Shown here one piece after another: positions 5,092-51,599 of a stretch of 64,000 nucleotides of DNA. Made by a program: the position numbers and the translations under genes. Origin of the DNA: Lingula anatina (Eukaryota; Animalia; Brachiopoda); contig CM120640.1 in the NCBI GenBank assembly GCA_051362555.1, positions 46,230,788 through 46,294,787 on the forward strand. Reading direction: 5' to 3'. Numbering within the stretch: position 1 is the stretch's first letter; the number at the start of each line of letters is the position of its first letter. Below the pieces are notes generated by a model. The model worked only from the letters and a program-made list of their open reading frames with translations, did no database searches and was not told the DNA's origin.

Positions 5092-7003
5092 CTACACATA
5101 TAAGTCAAAGTCAATCCGCTTAGATGTGTAAAAGAGTCCACTTTCTCCTGCTTTCCGACAAAGGACACCATCTTTAAAATAATCCTCTTCTTGCCATTTT
5201 AACATCTGAGAACTGGAAAAGGGTCCATGAATCTCTGCATCATCTTTGTCTTCCCACTTGAACACCCACATTACTTCATCTGCCCCTGACAATGAGGGAT
5301 CTTTGTTTGTTTCTGGAAATCAAATTTGTTTTAATCATTATCACAAAAGACTTTTTTAAATTAAATTAATTATAATTCAACTGAGATCTTTCATATTTTT
5401 ATCAATGCTCTAAATAGAACTTTTAATGAAGTTACTTAATAATAAACGATATCAAATGAAAGGCTAAATACAATTTTATCAATACCATCATCAGAGATGA
5501 GACAAATTTTTGATGATATATAAGTGAGATAAAAAGACAAAGTTCTCTAAAATTTGAACAAGTTATTTTTTATTTTAAAAATAGATTATTTTAAAGATAT
5601 TGATGATTAAATTTACCTGCTTTCGTAGGTTCCTCTTTGCTTTCCTTAGTATCCCTTTCTTTAACAACGCCCTCCTTTTCATCAAAATGTTCACCAAACA
5701 TGTCCAAAGCATCATCATCCTCTGTGCCTTCTGGAATTTGCAACTTTTGCTGTTCTTTTACTTTTAATGAATAACTGATGCCTTCATATGTTTCTTGGTA
5801 GATATCCATATTCCCATCACTAACCATTTTATCAGCAAGTTCTGTCAATTTCAACATGGCTTCTTTATTTGCTTTTTCCTCTTCTGTCTCTTCAACCTTC
5901 ATTTTCTTAGCTTTCCATCGCTGACTGGCAGACATGGATTTCTTGCTTCCAGCTAATCGTTTGAGCGCTTTCTGAACTGTTTCTCCAGGCTTCATAATTT
6001 CAAGCATTTTAGAGTAAATTTCAGTGTGGTCAAGTGGTGGTGGATCTTCCTCGTCATCTTCCTCCTCAGTGTCTTTCTTATCCATTGGTTTTACTTGGAC
6101 CCAGTCAATGTTATCAATCCAGCTATCATAAACCCTGTCCTGGAATTGAATAATTCTTATAAATCTGTATGGGAATCCAATAAATATTCAGACTTCCTTT
6201 TTGTAACGCACTAAGAAATATTATGTCAGAAATATTATTGACTAATTATCAGTGTTATCCTATATGCAAAAGATTAACAATACATTTCTGATTCACAACA
6301 AATTGCACTGGGGTTTTTACAAGGTTCAGATGGTACACTAATTTTTATCCCATAATAAATCAGTGACAGTTAAAAATGTATGTGTGTGTGTGTGTGTGTG
6401 TGTGTACTAGCTGAGAGGGGTTGCATGATTATTTTACATCAAAAGAGCATCAATATTTTTTTTAATCCTGTCATGGTACATGGCTCTTTAGTTCATTATT
6501 GAAAAACATGCAAAATAAGAGAAATAACAATGTGCGACAATTTTCCGTTTCCATTTGGATTAACTTACTCTTTTATCGAATATGAATGTGCCCTCTTTAT
6601 CAAAGTGGCCCTCTTCCATTTCATCCTCCATGTTGAAAGGTGTGATCTTTATCCCCTCATCAAAATCAATCGTCCTTTCTTCTTGGCCTAAAACAAAATT
6701 AAAACATAAAAATAATGAACACATTCAATGCCTTTTTACTATGTACAGTATATCAGTATCTGTCATCTCCAATCCCACACCCGGAGGACAAAATCTGACA
6801 GACACAGGGAGGCAAAACTTGTTACATTTCCGTAAACCCATACCTTCAATATCTTCATCATCAAGACGGTCTCCATCGTCAACATTGTCCTCCTCGTCAC
6901 TGTCTAATGTATGCTTCTCTTTAAAACGTCGGGCTTGCTTCTCACCCTCCTGGTCGTGAGAGCCCGCGTCACCCTCATCAAAGCGCACTTTTCTGTTTGA
7001 CAT
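5092..7003 (-). CDS. CD2BP2: CD2 antigen cytoplasmic tail-binding protein 2 (U5-52K/Lin1), GYF domain; exons 7003-6844, 6687-6569, 6139-5617, 5312-5092
   Basis: [10 protein letters not shown]...[58 protein letters not shown] and the C-terminal GYF domain VMWVFKWE...[23 protein letters not shown]...KRIDFDLYV*. Splice sites are canonical and phase-consistent. Confidence 0.95.
6377..6405. repeat. (TG)n microsatellite in a CD2BP2 intron
   Basis: Directly visible TG run. Confidence 0.95.
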
Positions 7004-7119
7004 TTCTTGACCAATTGATATTTGGAAATAAAATGGTATCTGATTACTATATATATCACACGATTTTTCTCTTCTTGTCCCTTGGTTTGAAACAGGAATC
7101 AACTAAATATTTTAGGGTT

Positions 7120-8077: not shown

Positions 8078-21459
<13,382 letters not shown>

Positions 21460-31700: not shown

Positions 31701-34700
31701 CCATATTTTCAACCGAAATGCAAGATTTACCGAGAAAAACGCTCTCGAGTCACTTGCTCAGTGCAACGTGACAGTCCCAATTTCGACTGACCTACATAAT
31801 TCGCACTAAAATAGAGATTTTACAAAGAAGGAAGGTCTCACAAAAAAATTATTCTTCGTGGTGTAATTTGAGCATATATAGTTTCATAAATCATTATAAA
31901 ATCAAAAAATTAGGTTTGTCCATTTTTTCTGCAATCATTTCATTTTTGGGTAAAAAATTCCAAGGTCAGCTTGGGAAAAACGCGTGTGCTATTTTTAGAC
32001 AGCTGATACAAATTTTTCCACGGAAATGAAATGTTAATTTTACATTGTGCGTTTACATCAAGTTCTAAATTTTATTTTTTGAAAGTTTCAAGCAGAATAA
32101 TGGGCTATTCACAGAGTTTCATGGATTTTCATAACAGATATGGATTTTGCAAAATATGGCGCGAAACACACGTCGCGGACTATTTTGTGCAAGCGCGTAG
32201 GATTTTTTGTAATAATCACCGCTTACGCATTGATATGCCAGATCTCCGGACAGACTGCATAGCCCCTTTGGGTAGAGCACCAGTTGCTGACTCTGCCCCA
32301 ATGGGAATGCTGCAGACAAGTACATCATCTAGTGTAAGTTCTGAAATAGTTTTTAGTGCGACACCTCTAGGGATAGGGGCACCATGCGATGGGTTTTTCA
32401 CAACTGGAACCAGCAGTGCACCTGATTCAAGTAGTCATGGTTCCAAATACCTGTCAACTGAACAAGGAAAGGCAGTACTGGCAAAGGCACAGAATTCCCA
32501 TGCCATCCCAACACCTGTGACACCAGTTACAGGCAAAGTTAACTTGACCACTTCGTTTCCCCCAACTGCACAGCTGCCTTCATCAGTGCCTACAGTGTCT
32601 GGTGGGAACCCCTTAGTTTTGCAGCCTGAGTCAAGACTAAGCCTAAGTGACAAGCAAACTATGACTGCAGGCACAGGGCAATCGACCACTGTGACAGTGT
32701 CTGCTGTCCAACAACAAATCACTTCAGTGGCCTGTAGTACAGCTTCCACATCAGGTATGCCCATACCAGGTAATGAGAACTGAAGCTACATTCACACGCC
32801 ACTACGTATTTCGGGAATCAGTATATAACTGCTATCTGGTCACTGATTATATTAACACAAATTGAACTGATTTCTGATCCAAAGTAGTTCCTCATAAACA
32901 GAGCTTCAAGCATTATATTTTCAATTTTGGGTGTTTTTTCCTTGAAGCTTGCGCAGGTTGAGAGTAATGCTAAATTTTGATACATTTATGCCATATAGTA
33001 TTTTAAAACTTGCAATCTTATGAATTAGTTGTGGGTTGAGAACAAACGAAGACATTTACAACCACGGTAGCATGTTAGTTTGTTCTTTTTTCCAGGATAT
33101 ATTCTACCACCAATGGCTTCAAAATCATCTGCCTCTTATCTTTTATCAGCTGAGGTATGTTTTCTTTCATGACACAGTGTAAAGCAAGCTAATTTTTGAA
33201 ACATGATAAGCAGTAGGCTACAAAAGATTTTCCACTACAGTAGGATCAATGAAAAATATTGGTGAAACAGACATTTAATTCGGCATGAAATGGTTTTGCT
33301 TGCAGACATGTGAAAACCATACTCATATTTAAGATATCCTGTTCGAAATGTTGTACAGGTACATTTTAATTAATGCTATTTTTTCTCATCTGGTAATTTT
33401 CCCTTAGATTCTGAATCCTCATAAGAAGAAGGAGCTTAGTCAATACCAATTAACAAATACAACAGTAACAGGGACTACAAAAACTGCAGCAACTGTGACA
33501 TTGTCTTCCTCAGTGTCTGCTGTGAAGCCAGCAGCATTTCCAACTCTGAAGGAACTGATAAAGAGCAATGTCATTACACCAGAACCAAACTCTATGTTTA
33601 TCATCATGCCTGTAAGCTACCAACTGATTAAACTGATCACAATTTGTTCATTAAATTTTTATAGCTTTTGAAACATTTAGTAAGTCCTCAAATTATAATT
33701 ATCATTCTTTGTTTTCTTTGATTTATAGCTTCATTGTAGCATTTACACTTGCAAGAAAAGAATGTTTGAATTATATCTCACATAAATAATTAAATATTTT
33801 TTTCCAAAATAGTGGCTTCAAGAAAATATATTAATGTTTTGAAAAAATTAAACATTGCTTAGTTCATTTATAAAAAATTTTATACCTTTACAGAATAAGA
33901 TGTATGTTGCTAGCCTGCTACCCAGTGGCCAGATTCAAGGTGCAGGAGGGGAGACATTTAAGACCCCCACCCAGTGGTGCAGTGCTGTATTGCCTGTGCC
34001 AGTCAGGAAGTCTACAGCCTATCAAAGGGTAGGTGATCTCCAGGGGAGGAGGAAGAGGAGTTGGTGTAATATTGCTGTGTGTGCCAGTCAAGTAACCGAG
34101 TCTCATTGATTATAAATTGCTATCAACGTAACCCGGCTTAAATGCCTGTCACGTCTAGTAAAGCTGTTACAGGGGCGGATCCAGAGATATTTTCTGACAG
34201 TCTTCTAAATTATCTTTGTTGATCCGTCCTCCATTTTTGACCGTCTTCCGACAGAAAAAATTGGATACCCATCAATGTTAACTTTAAAATCTGACTGTCT
34301 TCCGGAAAACCCAGAAGACAGCCTAAATCCGCCCCTGTGTTAGGGGGTAATTATCTTTACCCCCTGGCTGATTCGGTAGGCGTGACAGACTTTTAAGCCT
34401 CTTGACCTGATAGCAATTTAGTGTGAACCCCCAGGGAGTTAGGTCGATCCAGATGGATTGATCTAAGTATGGGAACCCAGTCTTAGTGGTGCACTCCTGT
34501 GCCTATTAATATTATATTATCATATGTGCTTCAAAATACAATTATGCAATCATAGTTGATGAAAATGGATTTTTTTTTAAATTTTTGACACTAATTTACC
34601 CCTACACTTAAATGCAATATGAGTGATGTTCGGAGTATCATATTTTCTAAAATCACAGGTCTTCTACAAGAGCAAGCCATTGTCCAGCTACAAAATCCCC

Positions 34701-39601: not shown

Positions 39602-40088
39602 TACAGTAACGTGTACCTGTACTCACCTGTAGTTATCAACTTCATTGGTAAACTTTCACCATTTCGTCCCCCAGAATGCGCCAGGCTTAGAATCAAGGAA
39701 TGTACGTCCACGAGTTTGTCTATGTAAATAATTGATAAATAAATGAATGGTTGAAAATATATAATAATGAATATTATAATGAATATAATAATATTACGTG
39801 GATGAGTCTATGAATGAATCAATGAATGAATTAAAGTAGATAGATATATTAATGAAATAAATGAATTAATAGATACATGAATAGAGAAATTAATAAATAG
39901 TAAAACAGATTATTTGCATGCATATGATAAAATAGGAAAAGTTTGTTGAAGAATAACTTGAAAATTATCCCCTTACGAAGGCACGGAACCCCATTATAAT
40001 GATTCTGGTTTTAAAGCAGCAGAGTGAGAAGAGGCAGCAATGTTCTGTAGCTAGCAGCAGACGGAATGACCGTAGTCCTGATGAATTA

Positions 40089-40383
40089 AGCCTCGGTCAC
40101 AACCGGCCGCACGGGCTCTTACAGTCTTTTTGCGTCCAAAATTTCCGCAGAATCTCACGTGCCACGCAAGTCCTTCTTGCGAAATTTGGAGTTGGCATAC
40201 AGCCCGTAAAATACGATTATTAGTAGAATCTTTTGGACATGTCCAACATCCTCCGTACGTGCATCCGGGCTGTCAGCGAACTACAAATTTCGCAAGAGGG
40301 AATTGCGTTGCACGTGAGATTCCGCGCAAAATTTGGACGCAAACAAGTCGCAAGAGCCTGTACGGCCGGTTGTGACCGAGGTT
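40089..40383. mobile_element. PIF/Harbinger-type MITE
   Basis: ~30-bp TIRs AGCCTCGGTCACAACCGGCCGCACGGGCTCTT / AAGAGCCTGTACGGCCGGTTGTGACCGAGGTT, flanked by TTA. Confidence 0.85.
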
Positions 40384-41363
40384 TTAGAGACCTATGAAAT
40401 CATCCAGCGGCCGAGGCTTCTTCATTGGATTAAACCCTACCTTCGTTTCTGTAGAATCGGATTCTTTTATCCTGCCCATAGTTAGGGAATATAAATCCCT
40501 GTGGTAGGGCCATTTCCAGGGGGCGGCTGTTCCTGAACTGTTAAGCAAATGGTTTCATTTACAGCAGTGTTGTTCGCACTGTCTTCCTAGCAATGTGAAT
40601 CAAAGTCAAACATAAACAGAAGCTAATCGATTTTTCAGTGCCTACTAACAAGAGACCGAAACTAGGTGCGAAAATCGTTAATTTTGTATGATGTTTCATT
40701 GTTCCACCGAACCGAGCCAAAGAAAGGCTATGGTGAGGTGTTCATTAATTCATTTTATCCAACATGGTATAATGGAGCGTCTCGTTCTTAACAAACTGAA
40801 ACAAGATGGTCAACTATTGAGACAAAACCTACTAGTATATGTGCCGTAGTTAATTTTGCTGAAATAAAGTTTTATAAGAATTTTTATGCTAAGGTTGGTG
40901 TTTTTATTCATTCGCATCGATCACGTTTGGCTGTCACCCAATGTAGGAAATGAACCTAAAAACCACTGAAAGCGATTTAAAATACCATACTAGTGTAAAG
41001 AAAAAAAGAAAGAAAGGATCAAAATCGGTTAAATATTTTTTAACGAAACTAATTAAATCGTCATGAAGACCATAAAATAGTGGGCATCGCAATTGTAACG
41101 TAGGCTTTACCTTTACAAAATACCGTTACAATATTTTACCGCAGACAGCATGCATAATTCGTCTTATCGTGTGACTTGTCAACGAAACATGCAAAGTGTA
41201 AAAAAAAGTAGATTTTCCAAATAGTTTATCTAAGTGAATGTGAACAAATGGCCTTGGCAATAGAAACAATATCACCTTGTCACATGGAGTTTTAATTCTT
41301 GCCACCACAGTTTACACCGAGTTGTTTCATGACAGGTGTGGTCAGCAAATTGAGACAATAAAT

Positions 41364-41885: not shown

Positions 41886-44800
41886 ATGAAGATATGTGAA
41901 TCAATTAGTCGCTTTTGTGCCGAATCGAAAATTGGTCAACACTGTATTCATTATGACTCGCTAAGACAGAGCATGCAAGGTGCTATCGGGAAAAATGGCG
42001 AAAGGGATTTTGTGAAACTTCTCAACAAGGAGCTAACAAGACTTAAAACTTTTATCACACTTAAGTTAAAAGAACTGCACATTTCTTATAGGCAACTGAT
42101 ATACCGCACTATGCCCAACTTGAAATCGGGTAAACTCCCCGACAACGAAACATTTTGCGGTCAAAGAGGAAAAATAATTGATAAATTTGTTGAAAATTTA
42201 AAAGACTTGGCCAAATTTACGTACCTCAATGGCGAAGCCTTCGCAAATATCATCAGGAAACACGACAAAATTGTAGGAAGCACGAGCACCTGGTACTTTG
42301 TGCAGAATCATGAGCAGTTCTTCTATAAAGTTTTAAGTGAGTTAGACGTGTTTCTCTACCACTCCAGTGTCATTTATGATTCAGTTATAAGAAAGCTGGG
42401 AGATACTTATGATGATAAGGACGAGACCGTCAAATCTGATGACCAAATTAACCAGGAATATTTTGAGAGAAAGAGCGCAAAGTACTGGGTAAAACCAGAG
42501 GATGCTTTCGCAGTGAAGGCTGAAATAGCAAAACAATTACCCATACATGTATTCAGGTAAGATATCTTGTATTTTCACGTGGATAAAGAAGCGAGTGATT
42601 AAGGTAATATTTCGGCATGTGACCTCTAATATAACGCAGCAAGGTACCGTTATGAGGAACGCTCATCATTACATTCATTTTTTAATCATTTATTTGAAAC
42701 AAAAATTGGAACACACCGTGTAAACAAACGAATATGTAATTAGATAGAGTTATTTCTCCACCTGCTTCTCACATTTGTGTCCTTCAGAATGGGCAGTTTG
42801 ATGCCGTTGATGTTTTGATGTTATATATAAAAGGGTGCATTGTATTTGACACGTTCACTACCCACCTAACGTGACGCAAGTCACGGTCTCTAAAATGCGT
42901 GCGTGATTATGACGTTGAGTTTAGTGTCATTCTGGTTCTTAATACAGAGCAATGTTTTTAAGTATTTTGTTAATGTAAACACTGACATTGGTTTGGAATC
43001 AGTGACGCTCAGTGGCACGTATCTCAGTGGGAGCTCTCATGCAAAAGTTTTTTTAAATTAAAATTAATGTCGTTCCATTCTGTACTATGTTAAAGGTATA
43101 TAGGGCGGTTTTTCAACTCAAACACACTGTTGTGGAGAAAACAAAATTTTGAGATAAAATATGGAGACGTAAAATGGCTGTAAAGGTAATGAATTGATGC
43201 TGCGATCACAAAAATAAAGAGTTCTGAAAATCACAAAAGTAAGTTCAAGTTTACATTGGATATTTAATTGGAGAAAAGTATCGTTTCCTGCAGTATTTCT
43301 CTCCAGTTATTTTCCCCTCTAGTAGGCTTTAAAAGTTATTATGAACTTTTGGCTGGAATGTTTTTGAGAAACAGAGCGACACTTTTGCGCTCAACTATCT
43401 ACCATTTGGTTGTAAGTTACACATATCCTCTATTATGAAATTTTCATAAGTGTTCTCTTTTCTTTTTTGTCTTCTTTTTTATTTTTACTTTTGCCACGGG
43501 CTTTACAGGGACGAGAAACCACTTCAACACAGCAGATTACTTGAGGAAAACGCGCCAGAGCGCACTCGACCGCCAACCACATGGGTGTCCTCGGTGTACC
43601 TGGACAATTCCGATCTCACCTGCTATCACAAACGCGTCAGGTTGGAAGAAGGTGCCACTCTGATTCGTCTGCGATGGTACAACACTCCACACAGGGTAGA
43701 GGTTAGTGTGTACACACACATACATACAGGCACTCTGAGTCACGCAAGCTAAAGGGCAGAGGAGAATCCATTTCAGTGCTGGCTGTGCCTGATATATTCA
43801 GTTCACTAAGATCATCGGTTGTGACTCATTTCCTTTTGTGTTGTAAAGAATAAAAATGCTGATCAGCTGCAGAGGCTTAATAATTTTTTGTTATTTTATC
43901 TTATCTTATTTATTTATCTTGCTATTTGGATAAATAATGTTTATGCATGAATAATAATGTGTGCCTATGCTTATTTATCCACATAAACATGATTAGGCCT
44001 AGGTATGGCAAATTCAAGAACCGGTACTTTTCAAAAAGGTAAGAAAAGATGATGTGAAATCCACCAAAGCATGTTGCGCGTTTTCAGAAGTGCAAGATGG
44101 CCTATATTGCACTGAAGTACTGAAAGGAATAGGACAAAACATTCACACATTTACACTTAATTCAGTCTATAATATTCATATCCTCCACACATACCTGTTA
44201 ACCGTTTGGTTTGTATTCTCTGTAGTCCCTACAGATTGCCGGACCTGTACATCAAAAGGTGTATGTAGAGAGGAAAACACACCATGAGAGCTGGATATGG
44301 GAAAACAGCGTGAAAGAGCGGTTTCTTCTGAACGAAGACAATGTTGTAGGATACATACAAGGTGATAGATAATGCTACAGCTATAGAGTCATCCTGACTG
44401 ATATTAAGTTGAAAATTAAAATAGAATAACGAAAGGTGCACGCAACTATGAAATAGACACAGACAAACAAAAGTAGTTATTAGCTATATAGGTCAATATT
44501 ATTATTAAAGACTTTAACCCCCTCTTTAAATTATATAAAAAAATCGTTTGTTTTATTTAGGAGATTCCAAATCGCATCCACGCGACATATCTAACACAAA
44601 AACATTGCTGGCAAAGGACATACAAGAGCAAATAAAAAGAGAAGAGTTACGTCCGATACTCAGAACGGTCTATAAAAGGATGGCGTTTCAACTCCCCGAT
44701 AACAACGACGTACGCATTACCGTGGACACAGATTTTACCATGGTAGACGAGGACGGGAATTTCGATTCGAAAATTGAATGGAAGAGGCACGAAAAGGGTT

Positions 44801-47800
44801 AGTCTTTAAAAGTTTTGTCATGAGATTTGGAGGAAATATGCATTTGATCAAAAACAAACAAACAGAAAAAAAAACGTGCGCTGCAAAACGATATTTGCTT
44901 TTTTTCTTAAATAACCCTCAAGATTTGTTATTGTTCTACTACACGTTTTAATTATTTTTGTTTTTAGAAATATTAGACAGGCACGACTATCGGATATTCC
45001 CACTTGTCATTCTTGAGGTGAAGCTGAAGGCCCCTCCGCCTCAATGGCTTGACGATCTTATGGAGTCTTCTCTAGTTCGCCCCGTACCAAAGTTCTCCAA
45101 ATTTCAATTCTCAGCGGCTTCGTTCTACCCTCACAAGGTCAACAAGTTGCCATACTGGTACAGCGATGATTCCATCAAGAGGAATAATGAAATGTATAAC
45201 AAGGTGCGGCACCTTGAAGTTACGAATCCATACTTTCTGTTCAATTTTGTATATCATACTGTGATACAAGAGGATAATGAATTCACATACATGTATGTAA
45301 TAACTGGAGCTTTCGGGAAGAGGAAATTAAAATACTACTCATTTCAATCGTCAACTTAAAAGTCTACAGGAAATATAATTTGGTGCAGATAATGCTTTGA
45401 AACAATATTTTCGGTTGATGAAGGTAAACTAAAGCAAGCCCTCCATACTAGTCACTAACATTATGTTAACGTTAAGTGTTACTACAGTGTTTTAGTGGAA
45501 ACCTCGTTTTACTAAGAAAATCACCAAGTGGTAGATAAATCATGGCGTAATCCCAGACAGTGTCCTTGAAGATTATATGATATATCGACCAAGTTACCCC
45601 ATCTTTTATTCCCAGGTGATCACGCATCCCAGAAGCGCGGAGTGGAGCTCGCATGACATGAAGCCTGCTCTGACATCAGGGGTCTTGTATTCCGTGTCAA
45701 ACGCTGTTTCGAGCAGACAAAGTAATGCAATGACGGCGGAGAGCAACAGGAGCCCAGGAATAGCTCAGATACCATTAAACGAAAACAGTAAGATTGTTTT
45801 TCTTTTATAATGCTTGTTCGATCAGTTGTATAGGGAATAAGTCATCTTTTAAAATTATTTGAAAAGTCCAAATCATTTAAATAAGGAGTCTGTTGCAAAA
45901 TATCATTTTAAAGTTAATATATATATATGCTCGTAAGGAAACGGAATATACTACTCATTTCTTTCTTTAAAGAGCTCATTAACAGGCTTGGCCTACTTCC
46001 AAAGTTTCATGGGTCGAACTCGGATGATGAGGCGCTGAAAATCAAGCCTATCCAACGTTTGAAAGTAGAGCCGAAAACATACTTCGCAAACGAAAGGACC
46101 TTTATTCAGTGGTTGACCTCATCGCTTCTGTTGGTAATACTTTTTTTCGCGGAGGACATTTTTCGAAATGCCTGAAACGAAGATGTTAGAACAATTTGAT
46201 TTTTTAAATCTGTATAGTTTCTTGGGAATTCCTTGCTAGTATTGCCTAAAATAGTCACTGCATTGGGATTTTGCTTCTTATTAAACACAGGGAAATTTCA
46301 GTTGCTGTTAAATTTGTGTCAGGGTTTCTGTCATTCTGTTTACAATGGTACATAGTATGCAGCTAGGTTTCCGCTATTCATGCTTGTATGGTGGATTATA
46401 TCTAGTGTGCCGTGCGCTAAATGGTGTTACTTGATCTGCAGGTGTACTCGAGCACCTTAACATAACACCCACAAGTATATATTTAGAATATGGCGCCATT
46501 TTTTTCCAGGTGACACTCAGTGGAGCATTGGTAACACTTGGTGACACTGATGCTCAAGTCACAGGCTTACTCTTCATGCCACTGGCGATACTGATCTTGT
46601 TGTACGCCACAGTAATGTTTTATGTAAGTTACTACACTAAGAGAATTTACGTAGATGTAGTACATTTTGTTGAACGCTGCCATTTGTATCTTTGGCATTG
46701 GTATCCAGCGTTCTTAACGATATAAATAGCTGTGACCTGAATAATTGTGAAACTGTTAGTTGCTCTTCAGTGAGAGGGAGGGGGAGAGTTAGATAATGAA
46801 ATGGGGTTTTCAATTGAAAAACTAATACTTTCCAACTCTAATACCTTATCAAATATCACATTTTCTTTTTCGTTAGTTAAGGCTACACCGGATCAAACAT
46901 AACTGTAAGTCCGGTTATCACGATGTCTTTGGTCCGGCCATCCTGACTGTGTTTTTGTGTGCAGCAATGATGGCGACCTTTTGTTTGCACTTTAAAAGTT
47001 TTTCTTCGTCTTTTAGTAAAAAAGACTTAGATGAAAAAGGTAAGTTTAATATTATTGCTCAATGTCAACAAAGACCATAAAACCAGAAGAGCTATTTTGA
47101 TTGGGTTAATATTTGTTTTAAAAGCATTGAGCAGGGGAACTCTCTAGAAACCTTCTCTTACGTATAAAGTTTACTGAATAACATCAACATGTGGTATATA
47201 AAGTAAGCCCTTAAAGAGTGCTTTTACAGTTTCATTACAGACAAAGTGCATGTAAGTTTGACTTAAATTTCGTTTTACAGAATTTCGACTGCTACTTCAA
47301 GAATCCGGCCACTGCCACAGAATGCAAACGAAGTTGCCTCTCTTTTTTGAGCCAAGCGATGTGGTTTTAGATCCATCTGGTAAATTCTTGTGGACATGTT
47401 CTGGGGGCGTTCTGGCTAAGATTGACCTGGAAAGCGAGGCTGTGATTGAATATATCCTTGTCAGTGGTGAGTGAAAATCTACATGTATAGTATCTATGCA
47501 CATTGTCCTACATGCTACCCAAAACAATCCGAATAACGTCATGTCATACGTTTTTGTTATTTCTGTTTAGATAAATTGTAGAACGTTAATTTGAATATGA
47601 AACAAACGCAAACGAGTGGAAATATACATACTAGTAGGCGGCAATACAAATTATGCAAGATGGCAACAAAAGTAAAAATAAGCGGGATTTTTACATGTGG
47701 GGTTTTATTCCATTTGTTTTGAAATTGTGTTTGATTACATTACAGATAAGAAAAAATATGACTTCGAAGGGCTTTCCTTTGGGAATCCGTTTCTGCCACA

Positions 47801-48601
47801 TATAATCTACATTGCCGCCGAGTTTCCAAGCAACCAAATCTTAATTTACGATCTTAAAACGAAGCAGATTTTAGAAGTTGTAGAAATGAATCAGCTGTTG
47901 GGTAAGAAAGTAAAAGAGAAAAACAACCAATTGTGACTTAGACTATGGTATTTTGCTTATAGTGCACCATGTAATTACAAAGTGTTTTCCTTGGTAGTAT
48001 TTTTAATGACATGTGTATGTACTATACAACTTCACCTTCACATTAAAAAAGGTATAAAATAAAGTCTTTAGTATAAGGACGATTTTGTGCTATCGGTGAA
48101 TATGATTTTGCATATTACGACTCGGCGTCTTTATCATTTATTTAAGGACGCAATCCCAGCTTTGAAGGCATAACCTACAGTGACACGGCCTGGAGTAACC
48201 ACTCGTTTTACCAGAGCTCTGGAACATTCTTTGCAACTTCAAAAGACTTTATCCAGATCTTTAGTTTGAATCCCGATAGGTCCAGCAGCCAGCTAGACCC
48301 TCTGCCATTGCAGGCAGTTAAGACAGACGCTAAAATAGGGGCTTTGACAGTGCGCAACAATACATTGTTTGCGCTGTTGGACAACATACACACCCTAAGG
48401 GCTTGGGATCTGAGGACCGGAGAGAAGCGAGACTTCCCGCTACCTTCTGCCAGTAAACAGTGGGAGGGTATAGCATTTAGCCCAGGGGGTGCTGATATTT
48501 CTACCTCACCTGACGAAACTGTCGTGTACCTTGCAATGGACTCACCGCCGCAACTTTGGCGGCTTGTGTTTTCTGATTCAATAGGATTTTTAGAATGTTA
48601 G
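41886..48601 (+). CDS. VTC4-like polyphosphate polymerase (SPX - VTC catalytic - DUF202 3TM - C-terminal beta-propeller-like domain), ~959 aa; exons 41886-42556, 43509-43701, 44226(or 44235)-44361, 44561-44797, 44968-45203, 45616-45787, 45973-46133, 46510-46623, 46877-47039, 47281-47466, 47746-47901, 48147-48601
   Basis: Twelve GT-AG exons sum to 2880 nt with no internal stop. SPX: MKI...HYDSLRQ...FTYLNGEAFANIIRKHDK. VTC: FERKSAKYWV, VSSVYLDNSDLTCYHKRVRLEEGATLIRLRWY, VYVERKTHHESW...SVKERF, LRPILRTVYKRMAFQLPDNNDVRITVDT, FPLVILEVKL, PVPKFSKF, LPYW. DUF202: KVEPKTYFANERTFIQWL, three hydrophobic helices, YHDVFGPAIL. Confidence 0.93.
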
Positions 48602-51599
48602 TGCATGTGAAGGTTAAATGACTGGGAATCGTTCTTGACTGTTTGGTATAGAATTACAAAATGTCGTGTAGAATACGAATGCAAATGGATATAAAGATTT
48701 AAGATATAAAGAATCCGACTTGTGGTAAAGCAAACATTCAAAAGTCCCTTTCATCATGTTTCCACTATGGTGCAACATGACATATACAAAGTGCATAAAA
48801 GTTATATAAAAGCGGCATTTCTTCTGCAAAATAACAGTAGGCCATAGCTGCCCCATTGAACTGGCCAAATTATAAAAATGTGACTGTCATTATAGTCTCA
48901 ACCGGAGCTTCGTATGTACCAGTAGTTACCGTCAATACATAATGCCAGTATGTCTGGTCTGTAAATCATCCTGGTACACGAAGTTGCTTGGCATTTTGAC
49001 CTTGTCGTTCACTTGACACACTCAAGATGAACTATGTGTCTGAGGTGTAGACGTGCTGCGATGCTTAGCTATAGGCCTATATGTACATCGTCGCCATCGC
49101 AATGCTGCCATTGTGATTTAGTGGTGTGTATTTGACCAAAAGAGGTCATTTGTTTAATATGCATTGCCGTAAACTGGCATTTGGATTTTCCTAAATAGAT
49201 ATGGCAAATGAAGTATAATTCGTTTATCACGTAGCTGAACATTTATTTATTTGGTCATTTGAGGGCAGATCGCTACACCGAGCCGTTAAAGGGACACGTT
49301 CCTTTAGAGACAACATATTTGATTTGTGAACTTACAATATGCAGTAGGTCATAAGATATCTGATACTTTTTTTAAAAAAGTAAACGTCCTAAGGTATCTC
49401 TATGTTAAAGTAGACATGCTGTTAAACTACCACGTCGAAAAAAATAGCTTATATTTATTCCTGCTCCGTAACTAAACGGGTTGATCTTCTAATATTTTGC
49501 AAAATGAAGTCGTTTTCACCTCAGGCTCTATTGGGTCCAGATCTAAGCTCTGGTGGGTTTTGTACCATCTCATTCTAAAAGGTATATGACTAAAATTGAG
49601 AAAGATGGTCGTTCAGTTATTATGAGCAGGTTATTAACGACCAGTTTATTTATGTTTATTCAAAGTAAATCAAGTAACACAAATTATGCATTTGTTTCAC
49701 TTCAAAGACATTCATGTGTACGTTCCAATATTTAAAACCTTCACACATACGGTGTTTCTTCTCGTTAATTTTCATCGCAGTATCGCAGTGTTATCTGTCA
49801 TCATCTCAAATAGGGTTCATTTGGATGGATACGACGATTGTTGAATGAAGTATTATCGTTAATCTGCGAATAAAGTTCGTTTTTAATGCCTTTTAGTTAC
49901 AAGGTCTCTACGCCATTTCTTTTTGTCTGTTACGTTCAAAGCTTTTAAGACATTTGAAATTACAGAAAATAATAATTTTATATAATAATGTTTTTCATCT
50001 TGGAAATATTATTGTAGCATTTGAAAGCGCCTATAATTATTCCGATTGTCCAATAATAAATATGCATTTACTCAATCCAGATCACGAGTGGATTGGACCT
50101 AACTGCGAAAACTACTTTAGATTTCGTCTCATTCTCAGAAAAATGACCCCGAAATATCTACTTCGAGAACCCAAGTCCCGTCCACTCTCCTTTTCTTGAC
50201 AACACATGTTTTTTTATTTTTCTTTTGTTCTTGCCTTTTTGGTCCCAACTTTTTCATGGATCCGTCAACGAAACCACACAAACAACTGGCATGCATGGGC
50301 TGTAATGACAGAAATTCTGTTTTAGATTTTTGTGGACCATTAAGAATCAAGGACCATATTTTTCCCTTTTCTGGAAAGTTTGAACCCTTCCAATATTGAT
50401 TTGCTCGAGGCCTGGAACGAACGTCTTTTAATTGTAGTGTCACGTGGCTGCTTGAAGTGCGATACATTCAAGTCCAGGTTTTAATAGAATGCTATCCTTT
50501 GGACTTTCTAAAATATGGCGTACAAGTTATCATTAGGTATGAAGTGCATTACTTTTGTGCTCAATGTTTATATTAAGATATGTAACTTTTCAAACTTAAA
50601 GTTTGTGTAAATCACACTTTTATATTTCATAAGTTATATATAACACTAAACATCAACTTTTTATCTTGCATGGTCTTGTGCATCCACAGACAATGTCACG
50701 TGTAAAAAAATCTAACAGTCTTACGAAAAATGTCATCCATTTCAAAGGGATTTTTCAAACGCTCGTGATGGGTGTCGTATATCAGCAATGCATCATTTGG
50801 TCGATGTCTTCCCATGAGGAATAATAGTACGTGTACTAGCGACTGCATCAAATGTCAATTCTTCTCTTTCAACCAGCTCATGATCTGAAAAAGTTGCAAA
50901 ATAGTTTTATGTTTATCTAAAACTGAGGACGTGATGGGAGTCACGATCAGCTAAAATGGGCCTACTCACTACTGGCTCACGTGTTATATATTTATAAATA
51001 CAATGTGTTATATCAATTATAACCAGTCCTGTCCCCAAGTGCCCTTTAAGAAAACTCACAAAAATGTAATGATACTAACCATTAACCACAGACGTGTAAA
51101 CCACCTTTTCTGACATTGTTTCTTCCTACAATGGCGTGTCCGATCCTAATAACAGAAATAGCCCAGACGGACTGAACGGCAGGACCTAGGGCTTGAAAAA
51201 TGGTGGAAATTTCACGTTAAAACGATGATCTGAGTCCGATTCAACGATCTCGTGTGAACGATTCTTTAAAAAATTATGAGCTTATACAGACTTGACATTA
51301 AATATGGAATATTTAAGTTTCGAAGGTATGCCTAGGTAAAAATGCGTTCTTTTTTTAAAGAAATCCGATCTCATATAAGATATGTGAATGGAAAAGTGTG
51401 TTGTCAGGTGTGTCTCTACTAATTAACTGACTACCATGTTTATTGCACTGCTGAATTGTGTAATATGCAATGATTTAATTGGGTAGTGCTCCTTTGGACT
51501 GGTCCAAGCTTAGGTGTGCCAAAGCATGCTTCTATCAAAAAAGTATCCATATGTCGGTAACTACTGCATAAAATAATTGGAAATTTTGCATGTTTTGCA

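Follow-up and report, generated by a model that had tools for sequence, protein, structure and literature searches.

A Vtc4-type polyphosphate polymerase gene from Lingula anatina continues into a predicted luminal five-bladed propeller with a conserved acidic pocket

Among the closest described systems are yeast Vtc4, for which catalytic and tunnel residues are listed in a preprint (bioRxiv 10.1101/2023.01.27.525886), and Leishmania VBP2, a separate luminal propeller of the VTC complex that binds to it and, by prediction, contacts the luminal end of the third transmembrane helix (TM3) of Vtc4 (PMC13375126). Yeast Vtc4 ends after TM3 and gives no structural handle on the luminal fate of polyphosphate (polyP), and a 2023 review confines Vtc4 within Opisthokonta to fungi (PMC10657179). 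Here we describe a gene at 41886–48601 on the + strand of a 64,000-nucleotide stretch of Lingula anatina DNA (positions 46,230,788 to 46,294,787 of contig CM120640.1, assembly GCA_051362555.1; hereafter the window), in which a Vtc4-type polymerase runs on past TM3 into a further domain. That a single frame joins the polymerase, the transmembrane (TM) helices and this domain, and that the domain has five blades, is virtually certain.

The gene model, assembled from candidate splice sites, comprises 12 exons with 11 of 11 introns GT–AG and a single 959-residue frame ending in a TAG stop at 48599–48601. Four of the 24 boundary combinations tried stay in frame, and these differ solely at the end of exon 2 and the start of exon 3; the start ATG was picked by its likeness to the N-termini of the Lingula and yeast proteins, the 5′ end being without read support. 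Hydrophobic peaks lie at about residues 592–613, 617–640 and 657–679. Past the third, which ends near residue 679, exons 10–12 encode residues 695–959, and these 265 residues contain all six of the blade-like motifs listed in an earlier note on this DNA, which had proposed an extra C-terminal part of about this length after TM3. Exon 10 (47281–47466, +) encodes a linker, the conserved C706 and blade 1 (E718, P719, S720), exon 11 (47746–47901, +) blade 2 (D762, E764, E782), and exon 12 (48147–48601, +) blades 3–5 (E815, K871, D887, N888, W914, E915, D940), the terminal C959 and the stop codon; a 129-residue antisense frame at 48208–48597 was read as a shadow of exon 12. The short tail that the same note ascribed to yeast Vtc4 is also correct: the yeast protein aligns up to residue 715 of 721 and ends 6 residues past the aligned TM3, whereas in the window protein about 280 residues come after it. 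Because the yeast alignment stops there, we regard the C-terminal tail as an addition.

Upstream of this tail the protein is predicted to be of the Vtc4 type. Equivalents of K200, R264, R266, K281, Y359, R361, E426 and K458 are all present in the window model, the first in exon 1 (41886–42556, +; residues 1–224), which encodes an SPX-like domain and the start of the VTC domain, and the other seven in exons 2–5 (43509–43701, 44226–44361, 44561–44797 and 44968–45203; span 43509–45203, +), which encode the polymerase tunnel. Exon 6 (45616–45787, +) supplies a cytosolic low-complexity linker (residues 492–549), and exons 7–9 (45973–46133, 46510–46623 and 46877–47039; span 45973–47039, +) the three TM helices, in which K583 and R590 match the yeast pore rings K622/R629. 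Pfam assigns VTC to exons 1–5 and DUF202 to exons 7–8 (28.1 bits against a cut-off of 23.4), scores SPX in the window model at 25.6 bits against a cut-off of 27.8, and places no family above cut-off in exons 10–12. The database homologue from Lingula anatina, XP_013413499 (‘vacuolar transporter chaperone 4-like’ in RefSeq, with no C-terminal domain annotated by Pfam), has the same entire architecture, is 54% identical to the window model and keeps all eight of the pocket residues scored below; its residues 1–176 match the yeast Vtc4 SPX chain (E 6e-8) and its residues 1–684 align with yeast Vtc4 (E 8e-72). Another Lingula gene model carries an insertion precisely at the exon 7/8 joint, which suggests an intron common to that model and the window gene.

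Seven RNA runs labelled with the host species were examined with a threshold of three reads per joint. Run X18 (94 reads) contains five spliced joints: 44361/44561 and 46133/46510 with 4 reads each, 47039/47281 (exons 9–10) with 5 reads and 2 starts, and 47466/47746 (exons 10–11) and 47901/48147 (exons 11–12) with 9 reads each. Exon 9 is thereby linked to exon 10, exon 10 to 11 and exon 11 to 12, and the fusion is spliced for real. The six other runs (11, 2, 4, 14, 34 and 6 reads) show no joint at this threshold, the exon 8/9 joint is absent from the joint lists of all seven, no single read reaches from the polymerase part to the propeller part, and expression is low throughout. Run X18 also has 4 reads within intron 8 and 4 within intron 9 (47040–47280), which may come from unspliced RNA, from DNA or from a transcript form that keeps the intron; retention of intron 9 would bring a stop at 47080 and a short-tailed, yeast-like protein. 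RNA coverage extends to 49200 or beyond in X18 and as far as about 49350 in X20, giving a likely 3′ untranslated region at 48602–49200 (+). A DNA run of another study covers exons 8–12 including their introns, and the locus is therefore genomic in more than one individual. Among the variants listed (40 rows out of 78 and 40 out of 190), 8 of the 15 in exons 10–12 are silent, against 22% expected at random, and none hits a pocket residue; we take the silent excess as weak evidence, given the partial variant listing and the tendency of transitions to favour silent changes.

The fold was predicted with AlphaFold2 and an 80-row alignment on the domain of the Lingula homologue (56% identical to the window domain over 261 residues). 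The model (predicted local distance difference test (pLDDT) 93.4, predicted template-modelling score 0.91) has 20 strands arranged as five four-stranded blades, the fifth completed by a strand from the N-terminus; single-sequence prediction gave a pLDDT of 32.7. Comparison with 48,161 chains by VIA-align, in which a second list agrees with the first, returned 3mbr (Z 21.2; root-mean-square deviation (rmsd) 2.6, 205 aligned), 2iwa (21.0), Escherichia coli YjiK (3qqz; 20.9, rmsd 2.9, 212 aligned) and 3nok (20.1), with the rest at 17.4 or less in the first list and the next fold at 17.5 over the two lists. Foldseek gave TM-scores of 0.63 for 3nol and 0.60 for 3qqz; WD40 proteins, first by Foldseek E-value, were set aside, as their TM-scores were lower (0.40–0.55). 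Prediction and structure comparison thus agree on the propeller that the earlier note had suspected. Its suggestion of kinship with YjiK/SdiA-regulated and phytase-like propellers fared unevenly. The YjiK part stands, as the family profile matches 3qqz (E 3e-6) and hhalign aligns four blades with YjiK at a probability of 79.7; to phytases the domain is less close than to YjiK and the glutaminyl cyclases. Phytases and apyrases lie outside the top 50 of both VIA-align lists, an absence that does not rule out kinship, and neither the window protein nor the Lingula protein matches Phytase-like (PF13449) at its cut-off of 27.6 bits, the best relative, one Owenia domain, reaching 21.3. The glutaminyl-cyclase family is not among the 14 Pfam families matched by 40 rows at E 0.1, and the blade-start motifs of those enzymes presumably differ from the ones found here. 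The PF06977 cut-off (21 bits) is missed by the three window exons and the Lingula protein and passed by 3 of 70 relatives. By modelled fold and by motif, then, the domain is a YjiK-type propeller, but by cut-off it is not a PF06977 member; YjiK annotation itself gives no function.

Because three TM helices follow a cytosolic polymerase, the C-terminus is expected on the far side of the membrane, and in yeast the helix that follows TM3 of Vtc3 is found at the vacuolar face (bioRxiv 10.1101/2023.01.27.525886). Consistent with this, the columns of C706 and C959, at the two ends of the domain, hold cysteine in 98% and 99% of the rows filled there, N-glycan sequons occur in all five animal domains, and in two relatives (P0004 and P0016) another TM helix with a basic tail comes after the domain. 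These features uphold the luminal placement put forward in the earlier note. We infer that the domain lies in a vesicle lumen, or at the cell exterior if the protein reaches the surface; a luminal domain with a C706–C959 disulfide is very likely.

In propellers, the starts of first strands and the ends of second strands share one face, round the mouth of the central tunnel. The best-kept polar columns of the domain (S720, D762, E764, E782, E815, K871, D887, N888, E915 and D940 in window numbering) each fall at such a position in the AlphaFold2 strand list, and strand order would place seven carboxylates round one mouth of the tunnel, along with a Lys, an Asn and a Trp. Eight residues were scored (D762, E764, E782, E815, K871, D887, E915 and D940), which belong to 12 polar columns at 80% or more; all eight are kept in 46 of the 64 rows in which these columns are filled, from a set of 76 with a median identity of 26%. 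A second Lingula gene (P0003 / P0191, XP_013378591 and an older model) carries, in the older model, Y359C and E426K in its polymerase and keeps five of the eight site residues, the Asn and Trp also being lost. Its three losses are about what release from selection gives at its 52% identity, and the gene could encode a Vtc2/3-like accessory subunit or be a decaying copy.

To define the distribution of the fusion, we searched 1.84 billion representatives with the domain (HMMER, E 0.001) and found 71 proteins; word-index searches with the domain found only Lingula. Among the 70 relatives besides the query, 19 have a VTC match and 12 more a DUF202 match. From the polymerase side, 14 of the 120 listed matches (559 found) carry the domain, which is in none of the named fungal proteins among those 120. 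Named carriers are Lingula (2), Owenia (2), a Bacillariaceae metagenome-assembled genome (diatom), Pyramimonas obovata and Gefionella okellyi (malawimonad), together with Rhodomonas salina by local profile. The Owenia fusiformis proteins (CAH1787178 and CAH1773898; identity with the window model 33% and 32%) have the same entire architecture and all eight site residues. The architecture that the earlier note wished to see sought in protists and algae was thus recovered in a diatom, a prasinophyte (Pyramimonas), a malawimonad and many unnamed protist-like sequences.

At least seven other VTC proteins have a long C-terminal tail unmatched by this profile. In the protist-like proteins P0075, P0076, P0082, P0085, P0097, P0109 and P0132 a different long domain without a Pfam match follows TM3, and these seven tails match neither this propeller nor the YgiF or VTC folds. 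The VTC protein of Choanoeca flexa (P0074), the best non-animal match to the Lingula polymerase among those listed, has a cysteine-bounded tail of 240 residues; at 2.7 bits against the profile, its kinship with the propeller is unsupported. In bacteria, no propeller homologue was found near 11 VTC loci (401 sampled genomes, one phylum). One bacterial one-strand run (L028:4521–8620, −; G163:C9), seen once, encodes DUF4956, VTC, a PHO4 phosphate transporter and a Phytase-like propeller; the last was rejected as kin (profile probability 1.3), and such a neighbour stands at 1 of 10 VTC places among the matches listed (121 family genomes; 12 further matches lie outside the listing).

In a quick tree of 82 rows built on polymerase and TM columns, from a sample biased to Lingula matches and mostly of unnamed sequences, the five animal rows form a clade (support 99) without a supported sister, and the window protein groups with Lingula at 99. 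A 38-row propeller tree likewise places the animals together (95), separate from diatom-like rows. Approximately unbiased (AU) tests on 79 rows, with three long branches left out, rejected neither Choanoeca (p 0.142) nor the 14-row clade holding the diatom genome (p 0.332) as sister to the animals. With the fusion spread over diatom, prasinophyte, malawimonad and protist-like rows and no supported animal sister, it does not serve as the marker of a donor lineage proposed in the earlier note; an old fusion with many losses and an early transfer into spiralians both remain as origins.

We propose that the luminal propeller captures emerging polyP, through bound Ca2+ or Mg2+, beside the channel exit, a proposal that we hold to be evenly poised. 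From cytosolic ATP the polymerase would produce polyP and, like its yeast counterpart, feed the chain through the TM pore. Lying about 25 residues past TM3, the propeller would offer a divalent-metal-loaded ring of carboxylates bridging to the chain, and capture would pull the chain out and begin its condensation. Because a pocket this acidic can accommodate a polyanion only via metal bridges, it would bind polyP as a metal complex. β-Propeller phytases bind their polyanionic phosphate substrate through such Ca2+ bridges. In 3mbr, a propeller of the nearest solved fold, Ca2+ occupies the central channel (PMC4396693). A metal site is the probable nature of the pocket, and polyP as its ligand is a finely balanced call. 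Since a Lys among acids suggests catalysis, the propeller might also cut or release the chain rather than merely hold it, but this is the least certain step and a doubtful one.

Several observations weigh against this proposal. Yeast makes and stores polyP without any such domain. Joint support comes from one of the seven RNA runs, and reads within intron 9 (4) nearly equal the spliced reads (5). The fold was computed on the Lingula protein, not the window protein, and the pocket and disulfide were read from strand order alone. The count of 46 in 64 rows is inflated by the way these rows were retrieved and by a single large diatom-like clade, and of the ten propeller proteins found by the polymerase search alone, five keep 0–3 of the eight residues with polymerase motifs intact, in alignments that are less sure. 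The degenerate Lingula paralogue is one case, on an older gene model. Finally, P0004 is a stand-alone propeller, preceded by an N-terminal anchor and followed by a second TM helix, that has all eight site residues and no VTC part; the ligand therefore need not be polyP.

Were the chain not only held, the propeller could represent a new family of metal-dependent polyphosphatases, cutting polyP and releasing it at the channel exit, which on present evidence we consider unlikely. A structural propeller, serving subunit assembly, folding or vesicle targeting and perhaps replacing Vtc1 or VBP2, with any metal merely a stabiliser, would account for the five relatives and the damaged Lingula paralogue that retain the fold without the full site; VBP2 is itself proposed to be structural (PMC13375126), and the unrelated luminal tails of at least seven VTC proteins indicate that this slot tolerates different domains. 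The near-invariance of polar residues, a Lys among them, in animals, the diatom and Pyramimonas at an identity of about 26% nevertheless exceeds what a scaffold needs, and the site is relaxed where the polymerase is damaged, so we regard a purely structural role as rather improbable. P0004 and the enzymes among the nearest solved folds (glutaminyl cyclases) would fit an enzyme merely tethered to VTC and acting on another luminal substrate, be it a nucleotide, an inositol phosphate, pyrophosphate or a peptide, as would the sub-threshold Phytase-like match of one Owenia domain; yet 27 of the 29 short relatives begin within VTC-type TM helices (N-termini read by eye), so that the domain nearly always accompanies the polyP channel, and the glutaminyl-cyclase and phytase families stay below cut-off in the 40 rows, which makes this clearly improbable. 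Clustered carboxylates would be titrated inside an acidic vesicle, and a domain sensing luminal metal, pH or polyP load could gate the channel from its place close behind TM3, the yeast channel being gated (bioRxiv 10.1101/2023.01.27.525886); the linker, however, varies in length and sequence and would transmit force poorly, and we think such a sensor very improbable. An animal adaptation nucleating calcium-phosphate shell mineral is barely credible, for although the nearest relative is a Lingula protein and lingulid brachiopods contain Ca- and P-rich granules proposed to be Ca–polyP (PMC3824353), the same site in Owenia, diatom and Pyramimonas predates any phosphatic shell and expression is low in all seven RNA runs.

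If the polyphosphatase reading is correct, the Vtc4 of these animals and of many algae would combine the making, threading and sizing of polyP in one polypeptide; the gene would be the first identifiable animal polyP synthase and a possible origin of the Ca/P granules in phosphate-shelled brachiopods. The intact, spliced copy, in a clade with Lingula and Owenia proteins, stands against the fungi-only distribution of opisthokont Vtc4 in the review (PMC10657179). The domain is a soluble 255-residue module common to animals and marine algae, with defined residues to mutate. It also makes the Ca–polyP proposal for lingulid granules (PMC3824353) testable. Our literature search found nothing on this domain, Lingula Vtc4 or animal Vtc4, although genome-paper supplements, outside the search, could list the gene; VTC and five-bladed propellers are already known, and it is the fusion and its pocket that we did not find in print.

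Elsewhere in the window, a scan of 135 frames placed two above cut-off, a GYF-domain gene at 5095–7102 (−), which we take to be CD2BP2-like, and a SANBR-type BTB exon at 9820–10065 (+). A weak RAMA match below cut-off lies at 33852–34106 (+). Inverted repeat arms at 40088–40206 and 40266–40384 (119 nucleotides, 84% complementary, with 59 nucleotides between them) lie 1.5 kb ahead of the start codon and look like a small mobile element.

Set beside known propellers, the domain resembles E. coli YjiK (PF06977, SdiA-regulated; 3qqz), which, with the Lingula domain as proxy, is likewise five-bladed with acidic blade-start motifs; in the hhalign alignment its acidic residues fall on the equivalents of D762, E764, E782, E815 and E915, but identity is 16%, the K871, D887 and N888 positions are changed and the terminal cysteine pair is missing. 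Propeller-type glutaminyl cyclases (3mbr, 2iwa, 3nol and 3nok) share the fold at Z 20.1–21.2 and differ in sequence, with 13–17% identity. β-Propeller phytases have six blades, as against the five four-stranded blades of the model. Leishmania tarentolae VBP2 is also a luminal propeller at the VTC complex near Vtc4 TM3, but it is a separate single-pass protein with six predicted blades (PMC13375126). Yeast Vtc4 (PDB 8i6v_E, 7ytj_D and 3g3q) shares with the window protein the order of an SPX-like part, VTC and three TM helices, the catalytic residues and the pore rings, to which the gene described here joins a predicted propeller in the same chain.

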